Assembly: GCA_017999675.1 (NCBI GenBank)
Contig: JAGNLL010000003.1
Span: forward strand, 74,071-138,070
Length of the DNA stretch: 64,000 bases
Direction: 5' to 3'
Origin: Rickettsiales bacterium
GTDB taxonomy: Bacteria; Pseudomonadota; Alphaproteobacteria; Rickettsiales; UBA1997
Under the pieces are notes generated by a model. It did no database searches. It was not told the DNA's origin and saw only the letters and a program-made list of their open reading frames with translations. Numbering within the stretch: position 1 is the first letter of the stretch; every line of letters begins with the position of its first letter. The position numbers and the translations under genes are program-made. Shown here piece by piece: positions 27,471 to 38,445 of the stretch.

Positions 27471-27498
27471 GGTATTTGATTAAAAGATGAATTGCTCT

Positions 27499-27629
27499 TG
27501 CGAATAACCACCCCAACCCCTCCTTGAAAAGGAGGGGCTTACTACCGAGGTTGTTTTTATTAAATCAATTTCAAAAAAATCATACTAAAGCCCCTCCTTT
27601 TGAAGGAGGGGTTGGGGTGGTTATTCGCA
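27499..27629. repeat. palindromic element family B, expanded copy (131 bp)
   Basis: The outer arms GCGAATAACCACCCCAACCCCTCC / GGAGGGGTTGGGGTGGTTATTCGC each carry their own small hairpin (CCCCTCCTT-loop-AAGGAGGGG). A ~50-bp AT-rich spacer separates them. Confidence 0.92.
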
Positions 27630-27643
27630 TAATCTTACTTAAA

Positions 27644-27895
27644 TCACCTCACCACCACAATCTCCAACGCATGCATTCCCCACGCAAACTCATCTTTTAA
27701 AACCGCATTAACTTTTCGATGTGCATTCACCACACTTAAACCCCTCAACTCCTCCGCTTCAATTCTAACCGCAAAATGCGTTTCACCGCTTCCATCATCT
27801 CCCGCGTGCCCCGCGTGCAAATGTGAATTATTTTTCACCTCTAAAAATTTTGGCTGAAAAGTTTTTTTCAACTTCTCTTCAATCCTTTGCTTCAT
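27644..27895 (-). CDS. BolA family protein (second paralogue)
   Basis: The HAGHAG...ETHFAVRIEAEEL..L..V..HR.VN pattern is typical of BolA/YrbA. Confidence 0.75.
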   Translation of the reverse strand: MKQRIEEKLKKTFQPKFLEVKNNSHLHAGHAGDDGSGETHFAVRIEAEELRGLSVVNAHRKVNAVLKDEFAWGMHALEIVVVR

Positions 27896-28159
27896 GTTAA
27901 AAAAACTGTTAATAAATTGTTAAAAACTCTGCACTTCTTCACCGATCGATTCTTTATTAAAAACTTATTAAAAGTTTTAACATTTTTTCCACAGATTTCA
28001 CTGCTGTTAAAAAGTTTTTTTCTTAAAAATCTTACCTGTTAATAACTTTTATAAATCCTTTATTTTCAAGGTTTTATAAAGTTTTTATCTGTTAATAAAA
28101 TTGTTAAAAATTTTTAATCAAATAATTCACAGCCCTAATAAAATTAACTAATCTCTTCA
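27896..28159. other. candidate chromosomal replication origin (hemE-linked AT-rich intergenic region)
   Basis: 264-bp AT-rich gap upstream of hemE. It has two exact TTAA-N7-TTAA motifs (27909-27923, 27957-27971). It has a DnaA-box-like TTTTCCACA (27985-27993) and a weaker TAATTCACA. CTGTTAA occurs four times, and there is one GANTC site. Confidence 0.4.
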
Positions 28160-29191
28160 ATGAATAAATTAATTAATACCCTTCTCAAAAAAGAAAAAAA
28201 TTCCAATCCACCAATTTGGATAATGAGACAAGCCGGAAGATATTTACCAGAATACCGCGAAGTACGCTCAAATGTAAAAAATTTCTTAGAACTTTGCTAC
28301 ACACCAAAGTTGGCTTCAGAGGTGACTCTTCAACCAATACGTAGATTTGGTTTTGATGCAGCAATTATTTTTTCAGACATTTTGGTAATTCCAGATGCGC
28401 TTGGTGTGAAAGTTGAGTTTGTAAAAAACGAAGGACCAAAATTACAAAAAATTTCAGGCAGCGCTGATTTAAAATCTCTCAAAACAAATAATATCGTAAG
28501 CCATTTGCAGCCGGTTTTTGAAGCTTTGTCACTTACAAAATCAAAGCTTGATGCAAACACTGCTTTAATTGGTTTTTCTGGCTCTCCGTGGACGCTAGCT
28601 TGCTACATGATTGAAGGTGGTGGATCGAAAAATTTTGAAGAAACTCGCAAAACCGCAATTCATGACGAAAAGTTTTTTGCCGAATTAATCGAAATTTTAA
28701 CGCAAAGCATTGTCGTTTATTTGTCGCAGCAAATCAAAGCTGGAGCGGATGTAGTGAAGTTGTTTGATTCTTGGGCTGGAGTTTTGCCACCAACTCAATT
28801 GAGAAAATGGGTGATTGAACCAACTAAAAAAATTGTTGCCGAGCTTAAAAAATTACATCCAGAAACACCGGTAATTTGCTTTCCGCGTGGCATTGGAATG
28901 ATGTATGAAGAATTTGCGCGCGAGGTTGGATCGCAAGGTTTGGCGCTAGATCAAAATTTAGAAAAAAACTGGGTGAAAAAGAATCTACAAGAAAATTTAG
29001 GACAAGTTGTTCAGGGAAATTTGGATAATATTTTGCTGGCTTGCGGTTCGAAAAGTGAAATCGAAAAAGAGGTTTTGCAGATTTTAGAAAGTTTTGGAGA
29101 TCATCCTTTTATCTTCAATCTTGGGCACGGAATTATCCCTCAAACGCCAATTGAAAATGTTGAGCTGGTGATGAAGTTAATAAGAAAATAA
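28160..29191 (+). CDS. hemE: uroporphyrinogen decarboxylase
   Basis: The PPIWIMRQAGRYLPEYR signature. Confidence 0.95.
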   Translation: MNKLINTLLKKEKNSNPPIWIMRQAGRYLPEYREVRSNVKNFLELCYTPKLASEVTLQPIRRFGFDAAIIFSDILVIPDALGVKVEFVKNEGPKLQKISGSADLKSLKTNNIVSHLQPVFEALSLTKSKLDANTALIGFSGSPWTLACYMIEGGGSKNFEETRKTAIHDEKFFAELIEILTQSIVVYLSQQIKAGADVVKLFDSWAGVLPPTQLRKWVIEPTKKIVAELKKLHPETPVICFPRGIGMMYEEFAREVGSQGLALDQNLEKNWVKKNLQENLGQVVQGNLDNILLACGSKSEIEKEVLQILESFGDHPFIFNLGHGIIPQTPIENVELVMKLIRK

Positions 29192-29202
29192 ATAACTAAA
29201 AT

Positions 29203-30408
29203 TTATTTCTGAACTTCCTCAAAAACCGTCATCCAAACTGACGCAATTGCCTGTGCGGCAATACCTTCTTCGCGTCCTAAAAATCCAAGTTTTTCAGTTG
29301 TTGTTGCTTTAACATTCACGCGGTTTTTTGTAATTCCTAAAACCCTTGCCAATTCTTCTTCCATCTGCTTTTTAAACTTAGAAATTTTTGGTTTTTCGCA
29401 AATTATTGTGATGTCTAAATTCAAAATCGTCGCACCTTTTTTTACCAATAAATGCTTAATAATTTTTAGCATGTCGCGCGAATCGATATTTTTCCACTTC
29501 ACGTCAGATGGTGGAAAATGTTCACCGATGTCACCTTCGCCAATAGCACCTAAAAGTGCGTCAATTGCGGCGTGAATGCCAACGTCGCCGTCAGAGTGAG
29601 CGGAGACTTTTTTGTTAAACTCAACATCTATTCCGCAAATTCTGATAAAATTATTTTCATCTTTTTCGCGCTCACGAAAAGCGTGAACATCAAAACCAGT
29701 GCCGCAGCGATTTTCTTCTTTTACATTTTGCACCAGCATTGAAACCATGCGGCAAGCGCGCTCGTAATCTTCGCCGGTAGTGATTTTAAAATTATTTTGA
29801 GACCCCGGAACAATCGCCACCGGAATTCCGGCATATTCATTTAGCGCAGAATCGTCGGTAAAATTTAAATCTTTAAAGGCGGTGTGAGATTCTAAAATAT
29901 CTTTGTAAAGAAAGCCCTGCGGGGTTTGCGCGCGCCACAAATTTTCGCGCTCAAGTGTCCATTCAATTTTTCCGTCAGAATATTTTTTTAGCGTGTCTTC
30001 AACCGCAACGGCAGGAATTACTGCTGGGTGAGTTTCTAATTTTTCTAAAATGCCATTAATCACGCGCTTAGAAACAAAAGGGCGCACGCCATCGTGAATT
30101 AAAACTTTACTCGGATTGTAATCGCGCAAAGCCTCTAAACCAAAGCGAATTGAGGCTTGGCGAGTGTCGCCACCAAAAACAGGATTTAACAAATCAAGAC
30201 CAGCGGCCGCTTCTTCGTAAAGCTCAACGTCGTCTGGATGAATCACGCAAATCACGTCAGTAATTTTTGGATGATTCAAAAATGCTAAAATCGAATGACG
30301 CAAAAGCGGCACGCCGGCGAGCGACAAATATTGCTTAGGAATTCCCTCGCCGCTATTGAAACGATTTCCACGCCCACAGGCGGTGATTAGTGCGACGATT
30401 TTTGGCAT
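29203..30408 (-). CDS. ispDF: bifunctional IspD/IspF (MEP cytidylyltransferase / MEcPP synthase)
   Basis: N-terminal IspD (AACGRGNRF) fused to C-terminal IspF (GFDVHAF...AHSDGDV); 401 aa. Confidence 0.92.
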   Translation of the reverse strand: MPKIVALITACGRGNRFNSGEGIPKQYLSLAGVPLLRHSILAFLNHPKITDVICVIHPDDVELYEEAAAGLDLLNPVFGGDTRQASIRFGLEALRDYNPSKVLIHDGVRPFVSKRVINGILEKLETHPAVIPAVAVEDTLKKYSDGKIEWTLERENLWRAQTPQGFLYKDILESHTAFKDLNFTDDSALNEYAGIPVAIVPGSQNNFKITTGEDYERACRMVSMLVQNVKEENRCGTGFDVHAFREREKDENNFIRICGIDVEFNKKVSAHSDGDVGIHAAIDALLGAIGEGDIGEHFPPSDVKWKNIDSRDMLKIIKHLLVKKGATILNLDITIICEKPKISKFKKQMEEELARVLGITKNRVNVKATTTEKLGFLGREEGIAAQAIASVWMTVFEEVQK

Positions 30409-30422
30409 GAGATGGAATTTTT

Positions 30423-31709
30423 CTAATTTGAGTGAGATTTATTTTTTGCAATTCTGTCTTCCATCTCGCCACGGAAATTTTTGATCAAACCCTGCACCGG
30501 CCAAGCTGCAGCATCACCCAAAGCGCAAATGGTGTGGCCTTCGATTTGTTTGGTTAGGTTGTAAAGTTGATCAATTTCTTTCACTTCGGCTTTGCCTTCA
30601 ACCATGCGATCCATAATGCGCATTAGCCAGCCAGTGCCTTCGCGGCATGGCGTGCATTGTCCGCAAGATTCGTGTTTGTAAAAATGTGAAAGTCTTGCGA
30701 TTGCAGCGATAACGTCAGTTGATTTATCCATCACGATAACACCAGCAGTACCAAGGCCTGAGCCCGCTGCTTTTAATGAATCAAAATCCATCAACACAGT
30801 GTCGCAAACATCTTTTTTCAGCATTGGCACTGACGATCCACCAGGAATTACAGCCAAGAGATTATCCCAGCCGCCGCGCACGCCGCCGGCATGTTTTTCG
30901 ATTAATTCTTTTAGAGGAATTCCCATTTCTTCTTCAACGTTGCACGGCTTGTTGACGTGACCAGAAATACAAAAAACTTTTGTGCCGGTATTTTTTTCGC
31001 GGCCCAAACCTGCGAACCACGCAGCTCCGCGACGTAAAATTTCTGGAACAACTGCGATTGATTCAACGTTGTTGATTACAGTTGGGCAGCCGTAAAGGCC
31101 GATAAGTGCCGGAAATGGTGGCTTCAAACGAGGTTGACCTTTGTTGCCTTCTAAACTTTCAAGCAAAGCAGTTTCTTCGCCGCAAATGTAAGCGCCGGCT
31201 CCGCGGTGCACAAAAATGTCCAAATCCCAGCCAGAATTGCAGGCGTTTTTTCCGATTAATTTTGCGTCGTAAGCTTCGTCAATTGCACGCTGCAACGCGA
31301 CAGCCTCGTTGTAATATTCGCCACGAACGTAGATGTAGCAAGTGTTGGCGTTAATTGCACGCGAAGCAAGTAAACAACCCTCTAAAAGTTTGTGAGGATC
31401 ATTGCGCAAAATGTCGCGATCTTTGCAAGTGCCTGGCTCAGATTCGTCAGCGTTGATCACCAAATAATGCGGCTTGCCTTCTTTGGGGTCAGATTTTTTT
31501 GGTACAAATGACCATTTCATTCCGGTAGGAAAACCAGCGCCACCGCGGCCGCGCAGCACAGAATCTTTAACTTGCTGAATCAACCATTCAGAGCCTTGAT
31601 CAAGAAAATTTTTGGTTTGCGACCAGTCGCCTCTTTTTTTTGCAGCGTCTAAATTTGCAGATTGAAAACCGTAAAGATTGGTAAAAATTTTATCCGATTC
31701 TTTGAGCAT
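30423..31709 (-). CDS. nuoF: NADH-quinone oxidoreductase subunit F
   Basis: [10 protein letters not shown] (FMN/NADH site) and [12 protein letters not shown] (4Fe-4S). I prefer the start at ATG 31709 ([14 protein letters not shown]). No other nuo genes are adjacent. Confidence 0.93.
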
Positions 31710-31892
31710 TTTTTTTGGAAAAATTGTGTGTGAAATGAGGGGCGCGGCAAATCGTAAATTTGCTTTTAGTAAAATCAAGAAAGCAGCCTTGTGGGCAAAA
31801 AAATTGCACAACTTTTTTTTACAAAAACTTTTTTGCAGACTAAAGATTGATTAAAAAACTTGCGCAAATAAAAACTTTTTCGATCTCATTTC

Positions 31893-33479
31893 TTGATAAA
31901 ATCCCTCCAAAATTTAACACAAAATTCCGTGCCTAATTTCCAAAATCTCTTGAAAAAATTTTTGGTGCTGTCGCTGCTTTCAATGCAGTTTTCTTGCTAC
32001 CAAGGCAGGTTAGATCCTTTTGACACGCAAAATGGGCTGACTCGTGGCGAGATTAAAGACAGCTTGATGAAAGCTCCAAAGAGAAAGGGTGAAAAAAACC
32101 AAGGCGCTGAAAAAAACGAAGCGCCAATTCCAACGGTTTCAAAACTAATTATGACGCCACCGCCCCCAGTAATTGGTGGCAGCAAAACGCTTTCTTTTTC
32201 GGTGACCGATCAGGTGCCTTTGAAAGATGTTTTAATTGAGCTTGGCCGCGTTGCACAAATTGATGTCGATCTTGATCCCGGCATTTCTGGTGGCGTAATT
32301 ATTAACGCTAAAAATCGTCCTTTTAAAGAAGTGATTGATCGCATTGCAACTCTTGGGGGCCTTCGCTACAGCTATCAAAACGGCGTTTTGCGTTTTGAGC
32401 GCGACACGCCTTACATGAAAAATTACTTCGTTGACTATTTAATTGACGGCCAGCTTTGGAGTGACGTTGAAACCAACATTAATGCTATTTTAGCTAACTC
32501 AACTCCAGCTGCCGCATCTTCTGAAGAAGGCGCTGCCGCTCCGGCGGGTGCTTCGTCAATTTCGTCAAATAAATCTGCGGGAATTCTTTCGGTTTTTGCA
32601 ACCGGCAAAGAGCACGAAAGTATCGAGGGCTATTTGGCAGATGTTGAGCAAGCAGCCTCAGCACAGGTTTTGATTGAGGCTAAGGTTGTTGAGGTTTCTT
32701 TGAGTGAAGAATACAAAACCGGCATTGATTGGTCTACGGTTGGCAGCAAAAATAGCTTCTCGGCCTCAAATGGCTTTACTGCAGGTGGTGGAATTACCTA
32801 CATAGCAAGCGAGTTATTTAACTCTGATCTTGCTGCCTCGGTTAGTGCGCTTGAAACCTTTGGCACCACGCGAACAATCTCTAGTCCGCGCATTCACGCC
32901 ATTAACAACCAGAAGGCCTCTCTAAACTTTGGTGACAAGTTGGTTTATTTTAAAATTGATTCAAACCAAAGCACAACCTCTGCAACAACTGGGGAGCCAT
33001 TGACTAGCAGCAATATTACTACCACCAAGCAGGAAGAAAATGTCGGCGTGCAGCTAGATATTACGCCGTCAATTAACGTGCGCACCGGGCAAATTGTAAT
33101 GAGCGTGAAGCCACAATTGTCGGTTCACAGCTCTGACGTGCAAGATCCTGGTGTTGAAGCAGCAAACTTGGTGCCGGTAATTAACACTAGAACCATTAGC
33201 ACCATTGCCAAAATTAAAAGCGGCAATGTTTTGGTCATTGGTGGTTTAATGAAGGACACCACAACCAACTCTGATTCAGGCGTGCCGTTTTTAAATCGTA
33301 TTCCGGTTTTGGGTTGGTTCTTCAAATCAGTTTCAAAAAGCACCACCCTTGTTGAAACCGTAATTTTAATTAAGGCAACAATCATCAAGTCTGGAGTCTC
33401 TTCGGTTGGCAAAGTTGATCGCGACTTCCAGCAAAAATTTGACACCAACCGTCGCCGCTTTTTTGGCACTGAGCAATAA
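31893..33479 (+). CDS. secretin-family outer-membrane lipoprotein (MshL/PilN/BfpB-like)
   Basis: C-terminal secretin domain (SSPRIHAINNQKASL, VPVINTRTISTIAKIKSGNVLVIGGL, GVPFLNRIPVLGWFF). The lipobox is LLSMQFSC. An alternative TTG start at 31950 would give the canonical signal MKKFLVLSLLSMQFSC. Confidence 0.8.
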   Translation: MIKSLQNLTQNSVPNFQNLLKKFLVLSLLSMQFSCYQGRLDPFDTQNGLTRGEIKDSLMKAPKRKGEKNQGAEKNEAPIPTVSKLIMTPPPPVIGGSKTLSFSVTDQVPLKDVLIELGRVAQIDVDLDPGISGGVIINAKNRPFKEVIDRIATLGGLRYSYQNGVLRFERDTPYMKNYFVDYLIDGQLWSDVETNINAILANSTPAAASSEEGAAAPAGASSISSNKSAGILSVFATGKEHESIEGYLADVEQAASAQVLIEAKVVEVSLSEEYKTGIDWSTVGSKNSFSASNGFTAGGGITYIASELFNSDLAASVSALETFGTTRTISSPRIHAINNQKASLNFGDKLVYFKIDSNQSTTSATTGEPLTSSNITTTKQEENVGVQLDITPSINVRTGQIVMSVKPQLSVHSSDVQDPGVEAANLVPVINTRTISTIAKIKSGNVLVIGGLMKDTTTNSDSGVPFLNRIPVLGWFFKSVSKSTTLVETVILIKATIIKSGVSSVGKVDRDFQQKFDTNRRRFFGTEQ

Positions 33480-33482
33480 ATC

Positions 33483-34244
33483 ATGAAATCAATTCTAAAA
33501 TACATCCTTCTGGCCGGTATTAGAGATCGTCTCTATATCGGCCTTTTTGTTACTTTGGCGGCGTCTTTTTCGCTGTCGATTTTTCTTGGCTCCACCTCTT
33601 TCGTTGAAGCGCAGCAAACAACTGCAGCCTACATTGCAGGCTCCTCTCGCGCCATTCTTGCCATTGGCATGATCCTTTTCGTTTGCCTCAGCGTTGCGCG
33701 CGCATTCGAAAACAAAGAAGTCGAATTCATCATTTCAAAATCAATCTCGCGCGAGCAGTTTATTTTAAGCTACGTAATCGGCTTTTTCGTTGCGGCATTT
33801 TTAATTTTTATTCCACTCGTCACTGCAATTTTAATCGTCACCAAAGCCAATAAATTTGGCCTGCTAATTTGGTCGGCAACTTTGCTTTCTGAGCTAATGA
33901 TCATCATTTCTTTTTCGCTGCTGGCCTCGCTAATTTTAAAAAATTCTTTCTCGGCAATCATGGCTTCGTTTGGCTTCTACATTATCTCGCGTCTGATGGG
34001 GGTTTTCGTTTTGGCAATCAACTTGCCGCAAGACATTGCGCAAGCCAAAAACCAAGCTTTGGGCGTTAGTTTAAAATTTCTCTCTGCACTTTTTCCACGC
34101 CTCGATCTTTTCACTCAAAGCGATTGGCTTTCTTACGGCGTTAGCGATTCAAGCAACCTAAAAATCATTCTAATCCAATCGCTAATCTACATTCCGCTCA
34201 TGATTTTCATGGCTTTTCACGATTTCAAAAAGAAGCAATTCTAG
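33483..34244 (+). CDS. ABC-2 family permease-like membrane protein (NosY/GldF-like)
   Basis: About 6 predicted TM helices. FENKEVEFIISKSISREQFILSYVIG resembles the E-x-E-x-G-T-x-E-L-L-x-x-P-x-S-R motif of ABC-2 permeases. It starts 3 nt after the secretin stop. Confidence 0.55.
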   Translation: MKSILKYILLAGIRDRLYIGLFVTLAASFSLSIFLGSTSFVEAQQTTAAYIAGSSRAILAIGMILFVCLSVARAFENKEVEFIISKSISREQFILSYVIGFFVAAFLIFIPLVTAILIVTKANKFGLLIWSATLLSELMIIISFSLLASLILKNSFSAIMASFGFYIISRLMGVFVLAINLPQDIAQAKNQALGVSLKFLSALFPRLDLFTQSDWLSYGVSDSSNLKIILIQSLIYIPLMIFMAFHDFKKKQF

Positions 34245-34245
34245 C

Positions 34246-35004
34246 ATGAAGGCTCGCCTCTTTTTTCATCTTTATTCGCACAAAATTTTCTTTTGGCTTT
34301 TTGTCGCTACCTTCGCGTGCCAACTTTTTTTCTGGAAACAAACCGAGCATCTAAAGCCCCGTTTTGACATTGTGCCGCCTGCTCCAAATCAATATTTAGT
34401 CTCTGCTCTTTCACTGGGCGACAAAGAATTTTTATTCCGCATTTTAGCCACGCGCCTGCAAAATTCGGGCGACGTTTTTGCCGGATTTTTGTCGCTAAAA
34501 GATTACGATTACGCCCGCGTGCACCAATGGATGACAACACTCGACACCCTCAACGCCAAATCAAATTTTGTCCCCGCGATTGCCGCTTACTACTATTCGC
34601 AAACCCAAAGAGCCGAAGACGTGCACCACGTGGTAGACTATCTCGAAGAGCATTCAAAAAAAGACATCGACGCCAATTGGTGGTGGCTTTTTCAAGCAAC
34701 TTACATCGCCAAAAAAAACATGGGCGACATGAATCGCGCCCTCGAAATTGCCTACCTGCTTAGCAAAAATAATTCGCCCACCGCGCCATTTTGGACCAAA
34801 CAACTGCCGGCATTTTTGCACGAAGAAATGGGCGACGGCTGCATGGCTTTTGCGGTGATTGAAAGCCTCATCAAAGAAAGCGAAAGCGGTGCGCGCCAAA
34901 TCAAACCCGAAGAGCTAAACTTCATGCGCCACTTCATTAATGACCGCTTGGCAAAATTGAAAAAACAAAAATTTGATCCGCGCCAATGCAGCAAAAAATT
35001 CTAA
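34246..35004 (+). CDS. hypothetical protein, N-terminal membrane anchor plus helical (TPR-like?) domain
   Basis: A 252-aa ORF starting 1 nt after the upstream stop, with one N-terminal hydrophobic helix (IFFWLFVATFACQLFFW). I recognise no motif. Confidence 0.55.
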   Translation: MKARLFFHLYSHKIFFWLFVATFACQLFFWKQTEHLKPRFDIVPPAPNQYLVSALSLGDKEFLFRILATRLQNSGDVFAGFLSLKDYDYARVHQWMTTLDTLNAKSNFVPAIAAYYYSQTQRAEDVHHVVDYLEEHSKKDIDANWWWLFQATYIAKKNMGDMNRALEIAYLLSKNNSPTAPFWTKQLPAFLHEEMGDGCMAFAVIESLIKESESGARQIKPEELNFMRHFINDRLAKLKKQKFDPRQCSKKF

Positions 35005-35846
35005 AAAAAGAGCTCGCCAAAATCGTTGCAAATGCCCTGCAAGAAGACTGCGCTTTTAACGACGTCACCTCCGATTTAACCATCGCAAAAAACAGTCTTG
35101 TAGCCTTTGAAATTAAGGCGCGCGAAGAAATCATTTTTTGTGGCAAAGACATAGTCTCAGAAGTTTTTTTGCAGTTAAAAAAATCGCCAAAATTTAAAAA
35201 TTCGAAACTCGATTTAAAAATTTTAGCAAAAGATGGCGCTCGCATCAGCCCAGCAAAATCAATCGCTCGCGGTCAAGGCGACGCCAAATTAATTTTTGCC
35301 GCCGAAAGAGTTATTCTAAATTTAATTCAGCATTTAAGCGGTGTGGCAACGCTTACGCAAAAATTTGCGCAAGAACTGGCTAACAAAAAAATCAAAATTT
35401 TAGACACGCGAAAAACTCTACCGGGCCTGCGCGCCCTAGAAAAATATGCGGTTGTGGCTGGTGGCGGCAAAAACCACCGCTTCAACTTAAGCGACATGAT
35501 TTTGATTAAAGACAATCACATTGCCGCAGCGGGTAGCGTTGCAAATGCAATTGAAGCGGCAAAAAGCGGCGCCAAAAAATTAAAAATCGAAGTTGAGTGC
35601 GACACGCCAGACCAAGTTGCCGAGGCAGTAAAATCAGGGCCTCACATCATCATGCTCGACAACATGAAAATTTCTGAAATCAAAAAATCGATTAAACTAA
35701 TCAACAAAAAAGCGCAGATTGAAATTTCTGGCGGGGTGAATTTGCAAAATATTAAAAAATATTCGGCACTAGAAATTGATTTTATTTCAGTTGGATCTCT
35801 CACGCATTCTGCTCGCGCCGTCGACATTGGGTTGGACATTATTTAA
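34986..35846 (+). CDS. nadC: nicotinate-nucleotide pyrophosphorylase (quinolinate phosphoribosyltransferase)
   Basis: LDTRKTLPGLRALEKYAVVAGGGKNHRFNLSD and IKDNHI motifs. Confidence 0.92.
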   Translation: MQQKILKKELAKIVANALQEDCAFNDVTSDLTIAKNSLVAFEIKAREEIIFCGKDIVSEVFLQLKKSPKFKNSKLDLKILAKDGARISPAKSIARGQGDAKLIFAAERVILNLIQHLSGVATLTQKFAQELANKKIKILDTRKTLPGLRALEKYAVVAGGGKNHRFNLSDMILIKDNHIAAAGSVANAIEAAKSGAKKLKIEVECDTPDQVAEAVKSGPHIIMLDNMKISEIKKSIKLINKKAQIEISGGVNLQNIKKYSALEIDFISVGSLTHSARAVDIGLDII

Positions 35847-35939
35847 AAAAGATATTCTCCAGCGTGGAGAATATGTTAAACCCACCAGCCCTTGGGCCTG
35901 AAGGCTCTGCAAAAATCTCGAAAAATAAAAAGCCACAAA

Positions 35940-37718
35940 ATGCCAAGAAATCACACCGCTTTTTCCTTCCTTTTACACTCGATTAAGCCCTTCAAATTTT
36001 ACGTTGGCTTGCATCTTTTTGTGGTGCTTTACAACGCAATTGATCTTTCGCTTTGGCCCTATTTGACAAAAAATTTAGTCGACACTTTGTCGAATGCTCC
36101 GCGTGAACAAGTGATTTCGCAAGTTTGGCCAGCGGCGCTGCTGTTGATTATTTTTACAATTTTGCCCGGATTAATTTGGCGACTTTCTGATTTTTCTTGG
36201 ATGAATTTGACGCCATTAATGAAGAGAAAAATCACGGTCGAAACAATGGATTACGCCACGCAACACAGCACAATTTTTTTTCAAAATAATTTTTCTGGCT
36301 CTCTCGCTCACAAAGTGCGCGACCTTGCGGGCTGCACTCCGCAGATGCTTGCGAAAATTCTCTACAGTTTTTTAAACGTAATTTTAAGCCTCGCAATTGC
36401 CTTTGGCGCACTGTTTTTTGTGCACAAAGTTTTTGCTTTTGCGCTAATTATTTGGGCGGCAATTTTTATTTTAATGGCTCTAAAAGCCGCAAAAATTGTT
36501 GACCCACTTTCAGTTGCCGCCGCCGACCAACAAACCAAAAACATGGGCAACTTGGTCGATGTTTTAAGCAACATTGCCAACGTGCGTCTGTTCAATGGCA
36601 GGGGATTTGAAACCAGCAAAATCAAGGCTTTGCAAGATGATTACACCAAGCTTTCGAAGCGTAGAAATATTTTTCTAATCAAATTTTACATTGTTCACGC
36701 ACTCACTTTTGCAGCCTATTTTATTTTTTGCATTGTAGCTCTAATCAAGCTTTACGCTGAGGGTTTGGTGACGCTTGGCGACTTCTTAATGCTCTTTACA
36801 ATCAACAACTGGATCATCCATTTAATGTGGATGGCGGCGAGTGAAATGAACGTGTTTTTGGAAGATGTCGGCACCATTAATCAAGCTTTGTCGATTGTTA
36901 ACCAGCCCTTGCAGATTAAGGACGCAGAGCCTGCTCAAAACTTAAGCGTGAAGCGCGGCGAAATCACTTTTGACAATGTTTCATTTTCTTACCAAAAAAA
37001 TTCTGAGCCGCTTTTTTTCAACAAAAATCTAACAATTTTAGCCGGACAAAAAGTTGGATTAGTTGGCCATTCTGGAGGAGGTAAAACCACTTTTGTAAAT
37101 TTAATTTTACGCTTTTTTGACGTGAATTCCGGCCGCATTTTAATTGACCAACAAGACATCTCAAAGGTGACGCAAGAGTCACTCCGCACCGCAATTGGCA
37201 TGATTCCGCAAGACCCTTCACTTTTTCATCGCAGCTTAAAAGAAAATATTTCTTACGGAATTTCTGCAGAAAATTTCGAAGAAATAATCGCCGCTGCAAA
37301 AAAAGCGCACGCCCACAATTTTATTGAAGCGCTGCCCGAAAAATACGATTCAGTTGTTGGCGAGCGTGGCGTGAAGCTTTCGGGCGGGCAGCGCCAACGC
37401 ATTGCAATCGCGCGCGCTTTTTTAAAAAACGCGCCGATTTTAATTTTGGATGAAGCAACCAGCCAGCTCGATTCAATCACCGAAAATTTAATTCAAGATG
37501 CGCTGCAAAACTTAATGCAAAACAAAACCACAATCGTCATCGCGCACCGTCTGTCAACGCTGGCGCACATGGATCGCATTTTAGTTTTTGATTTGGGAAA
37601 AATAATCGAAGACGGCTCGCATCAAGAGTTGCTTGCTTTAAACGGCACTTACAAAAAACTTTGGGACGCGCAAGTTGGCGGCTTTTTAATTGAAAATTTT
37701 GACGAAAAAAATGACTAA
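35940..37718 (+). CDS. ABC exporter, fused permease-ATPase (MsbA/type 1 exporter family)
   Basis: Six N-terminal TM helices, Walker A GHSGGGKTT, signature LSGGQRQR, Walker B LILDEATS. I prefer the ATG at 35940. Confidence 0.88.
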   Translation: MPRNHTAFSFLLHSIKPFKFYVGLHLFVVLYNAIDLSLWPYLTKNLVDTLSNAPREQVISQVWPAALLLIIFTILPGLIWRLSDFSWMNLTPLMKRKITVETMDYATQHSTIFFQNNFSGSLAHKVRDLAGCTPQMLAKILYSFLNVILSLAIAFGALFFVHKVFAFALIIWAAIFILMALKAAKIVDPLSVAAADQQTKNMGNLVDVLSNIANVRLFNGRGFETSKIKALQDDYTKLSKRRNIFLIKFYIVHALTFAAYFIFCIVALIKLYAEGLVTLGDFLMLFTINNWIIHLMWMAASEMNVFLEDVGTINQALSIVNQPLQIKDAEPAQNLSVKRGEITFDNVSFSYQKNSEPLFFNKNLTILAGQKVGLVGHSGGGKTTFVNLILRFFDVNSGRILIDQQDISKVTQESLRTAIGMIPQDPSLFHRSLKENISYGISAENFEEIIAAAKKAHAHNFIEALPEKYDSVVGERGVKLSGGQRQRIAIARAFLKNAPILILDEATSQLDSITENLIQDALQNLMQNKTTIVIAHRLSTLAHMDRILVFDLGKIIEDGSHQELLALNGTYKKLWDAQVGGFLIENFDEKND

Positions 37719-38445
37719 AATTACCCAAGCTTTTATTTTTGCGGCAGGTCGCGGCGAGCGCATGAGGCCTCTTACCGACTCGATGCCTAAGCCTTTGGTT
37801 AAAGTTAACGGCAAGGCGATTATTGATTACGCGATTGAGAAGTTGGACAAAATTTCGGCGATTGAAAAAATAATCATTAACGGATTTTACCTGGCCGACC
37901 AGCTTGAGGCACACATTAAAAATTTGAATAATCCCAAAATTATTTTTTCGCGCGAAGTTGAAAAAGTTGAAACTGGCGGTGGGCTTGTATTCGCGGGGGA
38001 TAAAATCAATTCAGACGAGCCGCTTTTAACGATTAATGGCGACGTTTTGTGGCAAGATGCGGCGGGTGTTTCTGACATTGAGTTGATTTGCAGCCGGTGG
38101 CAAAAAAGCGATTGCGACATTCTTTTGGGGCTTAAAAAAACCGAAGATTATTTAGGCTACGAAGGTAATAAACACGGTGGTGGAGACTTTAACGTTGAAG
38201 GCAAAAATTTGCTGCGTTTTTTCGACCAAAAAATGACTCACGCTTTTGTTGGCCTACAAATTATTAACCCAAAAATTTTGCAAAACGCGCCAGAAAAATC
38301 TTTTTCAATGTCGCATTTTTACAAAGAAGCGGTTGGCGCAAATGGCTTAATGCAAAGGGTTAGCGGTGTTGAACTGGCGGGAAAATATTTTCACATTGGC
38401 ACGGTGGATGCGGTGAAAATGACGGAGGAAAATCTGGTTAAATAG
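37711..38445 (+). CDS. sugar-phosphate nucleotidyltransferase (MurU/mannose-1-P guanylyltransferase-like)
   Basis: FIFAAGRGERMRPLTDSMPKPLVKV is an NTP-transferase signature. The ATG at 37711 overlaps the upstream stop by 8 nt. Confidence 0.8.
   Translation: MTKITQAFIFAAGRGERMRPLTDSMPKPLVKVNGKAIIDYAIEKLDKISAIEKIIINGFYLADQLEAHIKNLNNPKIIFSREVEKVETGGGLVFAGDKINSDEPLLTINGDVLWQDAAGVSDIELICSRWQKSDCDILLGLKKTEDYLGYEGNKHGGGDFNVEGKNLLRFFDQKMTHAFVGLQIINPKILQNAPEKSFSMSHFYKEAVGANGLMQRVSGVELAGKYFHIGTVDAVKMTEENLVK

Follow-up and report, generated by a model that had tools for sequence, protein, structure and literature searches.

Judged from its sequence and its conservation, the 264-bp spacer between a bolA-like gene and hemE is very probably the single chromosomal origin of replication (oriC) in the genome of this freshwater member of Candidatus Gamibacteraceae, and this origin appears to be hemE-linked and to have lost its control by CtrA. 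An origin directly upstream of hemE had been proposed in an earlier note on this DNA. The proposal held up: the spacer contains a cluster of boxes that is unique in the genome, its architecture is conserved, the GC skew switches at the corresponding spacers of congeners and no dnaA-linked alternative was found.

The source assembly (G000) has 1.505 Mb in 22 contigs and a G+C content of 41.5%, and the window, which is the whole stretch of 64,000 nucleotides analyzed here, corresponds to positions 74071–138070 of contig C17. HemE is 75–80% identical to HemE of the MAGs UBA2645 and RIFCSPLOWO2_01_FULL_40_26, with a placement in Candidatus Gamibacteraceae, an aquatic, uncultured family of Rickettsiales (bioRxiv 10.1101/2021.08.31.458344). 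The predicted oriC spans positions 27896–28159 of the window, is 79% A+T and is located between two divergent genes. Its left boundary is the bolA-like gene on the minus strand (27644–27895; NF008638, E 3.8e-15), and its right boundary is hemE on the plus strand, which encodes uroporphyrinogen decarboxylase (28160–29191; TIGR01464, 399.8 bits at a cut-off of 302.95). Beyond bolA, the genes grpE, clpP and clpX as well as a palindromic repeat element are found to the left of the spacer, while ispDF, nuoF and a secretin cluster are found to the right of hemE.

Among all 264-bp windows of the genome, the second most AT-rich one overlaps the spacer. Only one window, at approximately 15481–15745 of contig C13, is more AT-rich (0.826), and it contains at most two origin-type boxes. 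The palindromic element between clpX and bolA (27497–27632 or, in a narrower delimitation, 27499–27629) is a high-copy repeat, over which the metagenome contig depth rises from ~14 to 427 and whose terminus, TGTGAATAACCACCCC...CCTCCTT, recurs on many contigs. Comparison with Rfam gave no match in the spacer, and the only matches obtained were spurious, sub-threshold miRNA matches on the palindromic element.

DnaA boxes of the bolA-hemE spacer

About ten predicted DnaA boxes would fill the spacer in two orientations, most of which are of the form TTWTTAACA, or TGTTAAWAA when read on the hemE strand. The reverse complement of the repeated unit is TTATTAACA or TTTTTAACA, which is one base (C6 to A) away from the relaxed consensus TTWTNCACA. 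In the spacer, 10 boxes were identified with no more than one mismatch to TTWTYAACA or TTWTNCACA, several of them in 11–12-bp phase, and most of the units were 2–3 mismatches away from TTATCCACA. The pattern TGTT[AG]A[AT]AA, whose reverse complement is TTWTYAACA, occurs 306 times in the genome when both strands are counted. Seven exact copies, all in one orientation, are in the spacer; 300-bp windows elsewhere in the 1.5-Mb genome contain two at most, and the maximum in 5000 local shuffles was one. Moreover, 3 of the 15 genomic copies of TGTTAATAA are found in the spacer. When the whole genome was scanned for the classical TTATCCACA with at most two mismatches, the spacer tied with about six other clusters. 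Thus, the DnaA-box scan that the earlier note had suggested as a check singled out the spacer when the lineage form of the box was used, but not with the E. coli consensus, and standard TTATCCACA-based origin finders would rank a TTWTTAACA origin poorly.

Direct reading and recounts showed that all motifs previously listed for the spacer are present at their positions. Next to bolA, there are three phased boxes on the minus strand (27895–27926), TTTTTAACA at 27895–27903, TTATTAACA at 27907–27915 and TTTTTAACA at 27918–27926, which have no mismatches to TTWTYAACA and are spaced by 12 and 11 bp. The first of them overlaps the bolA start codon. The columns of this array are 90–99% conserved, and the array includes the first of two exact TTAA-N7-TTAA motifs (27909–27923). 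A degenerate box on the plus strand, TTCTTCACC at 27935–27943 (lineage consensus TTATTAACA), was recognized from the alignment and the conservation profile. The same profile revealed a conserved block on the plus strand, AAAAACTTATTA at 27954–27973, that is composed of two weak boxes TTATTAAAA (27954–27962 and 27965–27973) and includes the second exact TTAA-N7-TTAA motif (27957–27971), which as such is not conserved. The tandem boxes at 27974–27993, also on the plus strand, were identified by alignment and box match and consist of GTTTTAACA (27974–27982) and, 11 bp apart from it, TTTTCCACA (27985–27993), which matches the DnaA box at 8 of 9 positions. The homologue of this tandem in L008 and L010 is TTTTCCACA together with a perfect TTATCCACA.

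In the hemE-proximal half, a box TTTTTAACA on the minus strand (28005–28013), identified by conservation and box match, is inside CTGTTAAAAAG. It is followed by a moderately conserved T/A-rich stretch between boxes (28014–28036), a candidate site of unwinding that is no less stable than several others in the spacer. The next box on the minus strand, TTATTAACA at 28037–28045, has a perfect TGTGGATAA as its homologue in L024 and TGTTGATAA in several genomes. A small palindrome, ATCCTT-N7-AAGG(TT) at 28054–28075, is kept in most of the genus and absent from more distant spacers. Two tandem boxes on the minus strand (28090–28110), TTATTAACA at 28090–28098 and TTTTTAACA at 28102–28110, are 12 bp apart and connected by an AAT linker. 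Finally, the hemE-proximal box on the plus strand, TAATTCACA at 28123–28131, matches the DnaA box at 7 of 9 positions; its counterpart in L015 is a perfect TTATCCACA, and that in L033 is AATTAACAGCCCT. The 21/22-nt direct repeat CTGTTAATAA(A)ATTGTTAAAAA is found at 27906 and 28089, and the four CTGTTAA cores are at 27906, 28003, 28037 and 28089.

Given that boxes abut both start codons, the promoters of bolA and hemE must be inside the origin. The Cori of Caulobacter also has hemE promoters inside it. A promoter scan of the spacer yielded weak sigma-70-like matches at the level of shuffled sequences (4 vs. 2.6), and a nearest-neighbour stability scan of the spacer showed no single outstanding minimum. 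For IHF, only near-matches to WATCAANNNNTTR were seen by eye in the spacer, and they are not conserved. The genome contains a single HU/IHF-family gene (C19:59053–59322), which makes a classical IHF alpha-beta heterodimer unlikely.

From this arrangement, we infer an order of DnaA binding, assembly and unwinding. DnaA-ATP would nucleate on the boxes nearest to the classical consensus, TTTTCCACA at 27985 and TAATTCACA at 28123, and would spread cooperatively along the phased arrays, in which the spacing of 11–12 bp would place the bound proteins on one face of the helix. One very A+T-rich stretch between the boxes would open, and forks would depart from the spacer in both directions.

Conservation, GC skew and the dnaA locus

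Of the 18 congeners, 16 have the gene order clpX-bolA-spacer-hemE, as do additional MAGs whose HemE identity is as low as 60%. The length of the spacer, which is typically ~262 bp, ranged from 249 to 275 bp in 24 of 31 distinct spacers. The offsets of the boxes from the bolA start are nearly fixed, at ~12, 23, 110, 141, 194, and 206 in one orientation and at ~79 and 90 in the other, and these fixed offsets also hold down to 60% HemE identity. Among the 24 distinct spacers that could be aligned, the box columns were 90–99% conserved. The pairwise identities of the spacers ranged from 0.65 to 0.73, compared with 0.39–0.49 at the 4-fold sites of the neighbouring hemE. At these sites, 0.32–0.35 would be expected at random, and synonymous sites are saturated. 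Given that its identity exceeds that of saturated 4-fold sites, this non-coding spacer is under strong purifying selection.

The 31 distinct spacers contain 276 boxes, whose variable dinucleotide is TA in 72%, TG in 11% and GA or GG in ~11%; the GA and GG forms retain the canonical C6. The homologous box positions are occupied in other genomes by TGTTGATAA, TTATCAACA or a perfect TGTGGATAA or TTATCCACA. Moreover, four sister families (L025, L026, L027, and L029), all of which have canonical DnaA, possess canonical TTATCCACA and TTATACACA boxes that are clustered upstream of hemE. In L025 (family f12), a tandem TGTGTATAA-AAT-TGTGTATAA followed by TTATCCACA adjoins hemE. Its equivalent here is TGTTAATAA-AAT-TGTTAAAAA followed by TAATTCACA, so that the tandem of L025 is the positional homologue of 28090–28110. 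We interpret the repeated units of the spacer as DnaA boxes, and DnaA would be expected to bind the variant forms as well.

As the assembly is in 22 contigs, the GC skew was read contig by contig instead of as a whole-chromosome curve. Among the long contigs, C17 alone switches from minus to plus skew, and C10, C15, and C8 are monotonic. The raw skew minimum of C17 is at ~37.4–37.9 kb of the window, on the right side of the spacer and ~9.5 kb away from it. The skew is stronger in the congeners G018 and G002, in which the switch is within ~1 kb of the spacer: their best breakpoints are 57000 and 123000, and their spacers are at 56757–57016 and 121885–122148, respectively. Similar to the source genome, its closest relative, G014, shows an offset of ~9 kb. 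A synteny map revealed that, compared with G018 and G002, the source genome and G014 carry an inverted 9.2-kb block (29203–38445), which contains ispDF, nuoF, the secretin cluster and the following genes. On its left, this block ends in the 11-bp gap that follows the stop codon of hemE, and its skew is -0.042, compared with +0.045 in the flank beyond. The offset of ~9.5 kb in the source genome and that in G014 are thus attributable to the inversion, by which the minimum was pushed to the far end of the block. When 29203–38445 was re-inverted in silico, the cumulative minimum moved from 37430 to 29930, ~1.8 kb from the spacer. Thus, of the agreement between skew and origin foreseen in the earlier note, the part seen directly is that of G018 and G002, whereas in the source genome the raw minimum is displaced and approaches the spacer after re-inversion. 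An origin at the raw minimum itself (~37–38 kb) was rejected, given that this position is the end of the inverted block and that no cluster was seen at it in the box scans. Even a small inversion beside an origin can displace the skew minimum by its own length.

On contig C6, there is a plus-to-minus step of the GC skew at ~10 kb, from +47.8 to -12.4 per kb with 40% of the variance explained, which makes it the strongest terminus candidate of the assembly. Marker frequency was assessed with Logan contigs from the wastewater metagenome runs X1–X3, in which the depth was ~13–15x for the spacer region and 12–16x for contig C6, with noise as large as the expected signal.

The gene-strand bias, which had been regarded as fitting divergent replication, is present near the spacer, with 28 minus and 9 plus genes in the 42 kb to the left and 18 plus and 10 minus genes in the 38 kb to the right. 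Farther right on the contig, however, it is reversed (49 minus and 20 plus genes), and it therefore constitutes weak evidence for an origin. The dnaA gene (L001, C8:79824–81242) abuts or overlaps a rhodanese-like gene without any intergenic spacer, so that the usual autoregulatory cluster of boxes upstream of dnaA is missing. A canonical dnaA-linked oriC was excluded by this lack of a spacer and by the monotonic skew of contig C8.

CtrA, GcrA and CcrM

The sole OmpR-family regulator encoded in the genome is OmpR-like, with 216 bits to OmpR and 130 bits to the CtrA model NCBIfam NF045991 (cut-off 350), and is 31% identical to Caulobacter CtrA. In the 19 genomes of the genus, the best score with the CtrA model was 177 bits, below the cut-off, yet of the 12 other families of the order, 10 have CtrA with 387–423 bits. 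CtrA is also missing from two other families of the order (G021 and G022). Neither GcrA nor CcrM was found in the source genome, in which the sole N6/N4 methyltransferase scored 52 bits at a CcrM cut-off of 830. This phage-type N6/N4 DNA methyltransferase of 213 amino acid residues is encoded beside a terminase large-subunit gene (C21:2332–2550; L005 1459–2100) and is probably within a prophage or a phage-derived island. The lineage has lost CtrA, and the Caulobacter-type regulatory layer is absent. As the whole genus is without CtrA and searches of this genome revealed neither GcrA nor CcrM, the timing of replication would rest on the activity of DnaA alone.

The two TTAA-N7-TTAA motifs had been taken as CtrA sites and the single GANTC (GATTC, 27948–27952) as a site of the CcrM type. 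Two TTAA-N7-TTAA motifs were observed where 0.14 would be expected from the local composition (P ~0.011). The motif at 27909 is conserved in relatives because it is formed by two TGTTAA boxes at a distance of 11 bp, and the spacing in its twin at 28089 is N8. The motif at 27957 is kept in 2 of 24 spacers. The occurrence of GANTC was not above chance, with two strand-hits from one palindromic site and 1.3 expected at the genome rate, and 1 of 24 aligned spacers has GANTC at this position. The suggested control of the origin by CtrA was not supported, given the genus-wide absence of CtrA and motifs that either reflect box phasing or are unconserved. Control by CcrM was likewise contradicted, as CcrM was not found in this genome and GANTC is at chance level and poorly kept. 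What had been described as CTGTTAA cores and CtrA sites is better read as putative phased, diverged DnaA boxes.

DnaA recognition helix and comparison with known origins

DnaA of the source genome is 473 amino acid residues long, and its helix motif is GGKNHATV, which corresponds to D433N and T435A (E. coli numbering), both at the start of the recognition helix. The C-terminus of E. coli DnaA, with GG(K/R)DHTTV, served as the reference, and the motif was checked against PDB 8BTG, the DnaA of B. subtilis, which has GGRDHTTV. All 18 DnaA sequences recovered from the genus contain GGKNHATV, and that of G021 contains NHATV. Other families have GGKDHTTV or GGRDHTTV, and all CtrA-bearing sister families have GG(K/R)DHTTV. 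R399, P423, D433, H434, T435, and H439 are the base-specific residues of DnaA (PMC7561715, PMC2533591). The helix formed by residues 434–451 reads TnCACA and R399 reads TTA (PMC5742627), and the D-H dyad is highly conserved (PMC5043019). R399 is conserved in DnaA of the source genome. The change of the box from TnCACA to TTAACA is in the 3' half, the half that is read by the altered helix, and D433N and T435A were found exactly in the lineages that have TTATTAACA boxes in place of TTATCCACA. The family of G021, which lacks CtrA, has only TTATTAACA boxes upstream of hemE and shares the hemE-proximal AATT(C/A)ACAGCCCT.

DnaA and its boxes have probably co-evolved, and Asn433 may read the new adenine. 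The covariation between DnaA and boxes represents one or two evolutionary events and is not statistically independent across lineages, as Gamibacteraceae and G021 share features of the origin. We give an even chance to the reading that the recognition code of DnaA has changed naturally. In this reading, D433N/T435A and a shift of the box from TTATCCACA to TTATTAACA would have altered the CACA half in Candidatus Gamibacteraceae and the G021 family, and the CtrA circuit was also discarded.

The same observations bear on other ways to read the spacer. The TGTTAAWAA units might be iteron-like sites for another protein, either a replacement of CtrA or an accessory initiator, at an origin where DnaA uses two or three near-canonical boxes. 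Such an arrangement is in line with the distance of the units from TTATCCACA, with the change of C6 in the normally invariant CACA half, and with their common orientation in a unique cluster. We consider it unlikely, as the repeats interconvert with canonical boxes at homologous positions, are positionally homologous to the TGTGTATAA boxes of a sister family and occur in just the same lineages in which the DnaA recognition helix is altered, and no candidate for the extra protein is linked to the locus. It is harder still to regard the spacer as no origin at all, but as a divergent bolA/hemE promoter region with a repeated operator, the true origin being at the raw skew minimum of 37–38 kb or on an unassembled piece. 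Although bolA and hemE both need transcription from the spacer, sigma-70-like matches exist (if only at shuffle level) and the raw minimum is ~9.5 kb off, a repeat that is confined to a single site, conserved past synonymous saturation and located at the skew switch in two congeners is unlike a gene-specific operator. In addition, the raw minimum is explained as the end of an inverted block, where box scans point to nothing, and the dnaA region has no spacer. We consider this reading highly improbable.

The least probable of all is an origin of the full Caulobacter type, with DnaA boxes, functional CtrA sites and CcrM methylation that times replication. The linkage to hemE is as in the origins of Caulobacter and Rickettsiales, which carry CtrA sites (PMC1914354), and the two exact TTAA-N7-TTAA motifs exceed the expectation from local composition. 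Against this stand the lack of CtrA throughout the genus (19 of 19 genomes), in contrast to its retention by 10 of 12 other families, the failure to find GcrA and CcrM in the source genome, the full explanation of the first motif by the 11-bp spacing of the boxes, and the poor retention of the second motif (2 of 24) and of GANTC (1 of 24).

The preferred reading, a hemE-linked oriC with variant DnaA boxes and without CtrA control, can be compared with several known systems. The oriC of E. coli possesses R boxes with phased low-affinity DnaA sites of the I, tau and C types, as described by Leonard and Grimwade. Similar to E. coli oriC, the spacer has arrays of weak sites that are about one helical turn apart, better boxes that flank them, and groups of opposing orientation, all of which are predicted sites here. 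Different from E. coli oriC, Dam/SeqA is not implied, Fis and IHF sites are not supported and the sequence of the boxes is another one.

Among hemE-linked origins, that of Caulobacter is experimentally established, and those of Rickettsia, Wolbachia, Ehrlichia, and Anaplasma were identified in silico (PMC1914354). Similar to Cori of Caulobacter crescentus (hemE/CC0001), the predicted origin is directly upstream of hemE, is AT-rich, is apart from dnaA, contains several mostly weak or diverged DnaA boxes and would have promoters embedded in it (PMC1914354, PMC6393856). Different from Cori, its genome is without CtrA, GcrA, and CcrM, so that neither CtrA repression nor methylation timing would operate; its partner gene is bolA and not COG1806; its boxes are TTWTTAACA; and, with 264 bp, it is much more compact. 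The in silico origins of Rickettsia, Wolbachia, Ehrlichia, and Anaplasma, which belong to the same order, are likewise bounded by hemE on one side and a variable gene on the other, occupy AT-rich intergenic regions of a few hundred bp, of which this 264-bp spacer is a shorter example, and have binding sites whose conservation exceeds that of the remaining sequence (Brassinga et al.; Ioannidis et al., 2007, PMC1914354). They contain 3–5 TTATNCACA boxes, 2–7 CtrA sites and an IHF site (PMC1914354), whereas the origin predicted here has about ten mostly non-canonical boxes and its genome has no CtrA and one HU/IHF-family gene. Divergence of the box together with substitutions at the N-terminus of helix 5 of domain IV is also known from Helicobacter and other Epsilonproteobacteria with TCATTCACN (PMC5043019) and from Thermotoga with its 12-mer (cited in PMC7561715). 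Different from those, C6 of the near-universal CACA is changed in the predicted boxes here and D433 of the D-H dyad is substituted. Relative to the known hemE-linked origins of Alphaproteobacteria (PMC1914354), the bolA partner, the missing CtrA layer, the approximately ten phased TTWTTAACA boxes and the matching change in DnaA appear to be new.

The location of the origin itself is unsurprising, as linkage to hemE is the norm in Alphaproteobacteria. For the uncultured Candidatus Gamibacteraceae, a precise and conserved map of the origin aids the closing of MAGs, the setting of coordinate zero and the estimation of growth rates from peak-to-trough ratios. That two base-contacting residues of DnaA and the box half they read are both changed represents a testable natural experiment in initiator specificity. 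Moreover, this change of DnaA and boxes occurs in a lineage without CtrA, which other Rickettsiales keep, and the loss of the CtrA circuit may merit a study of its own.
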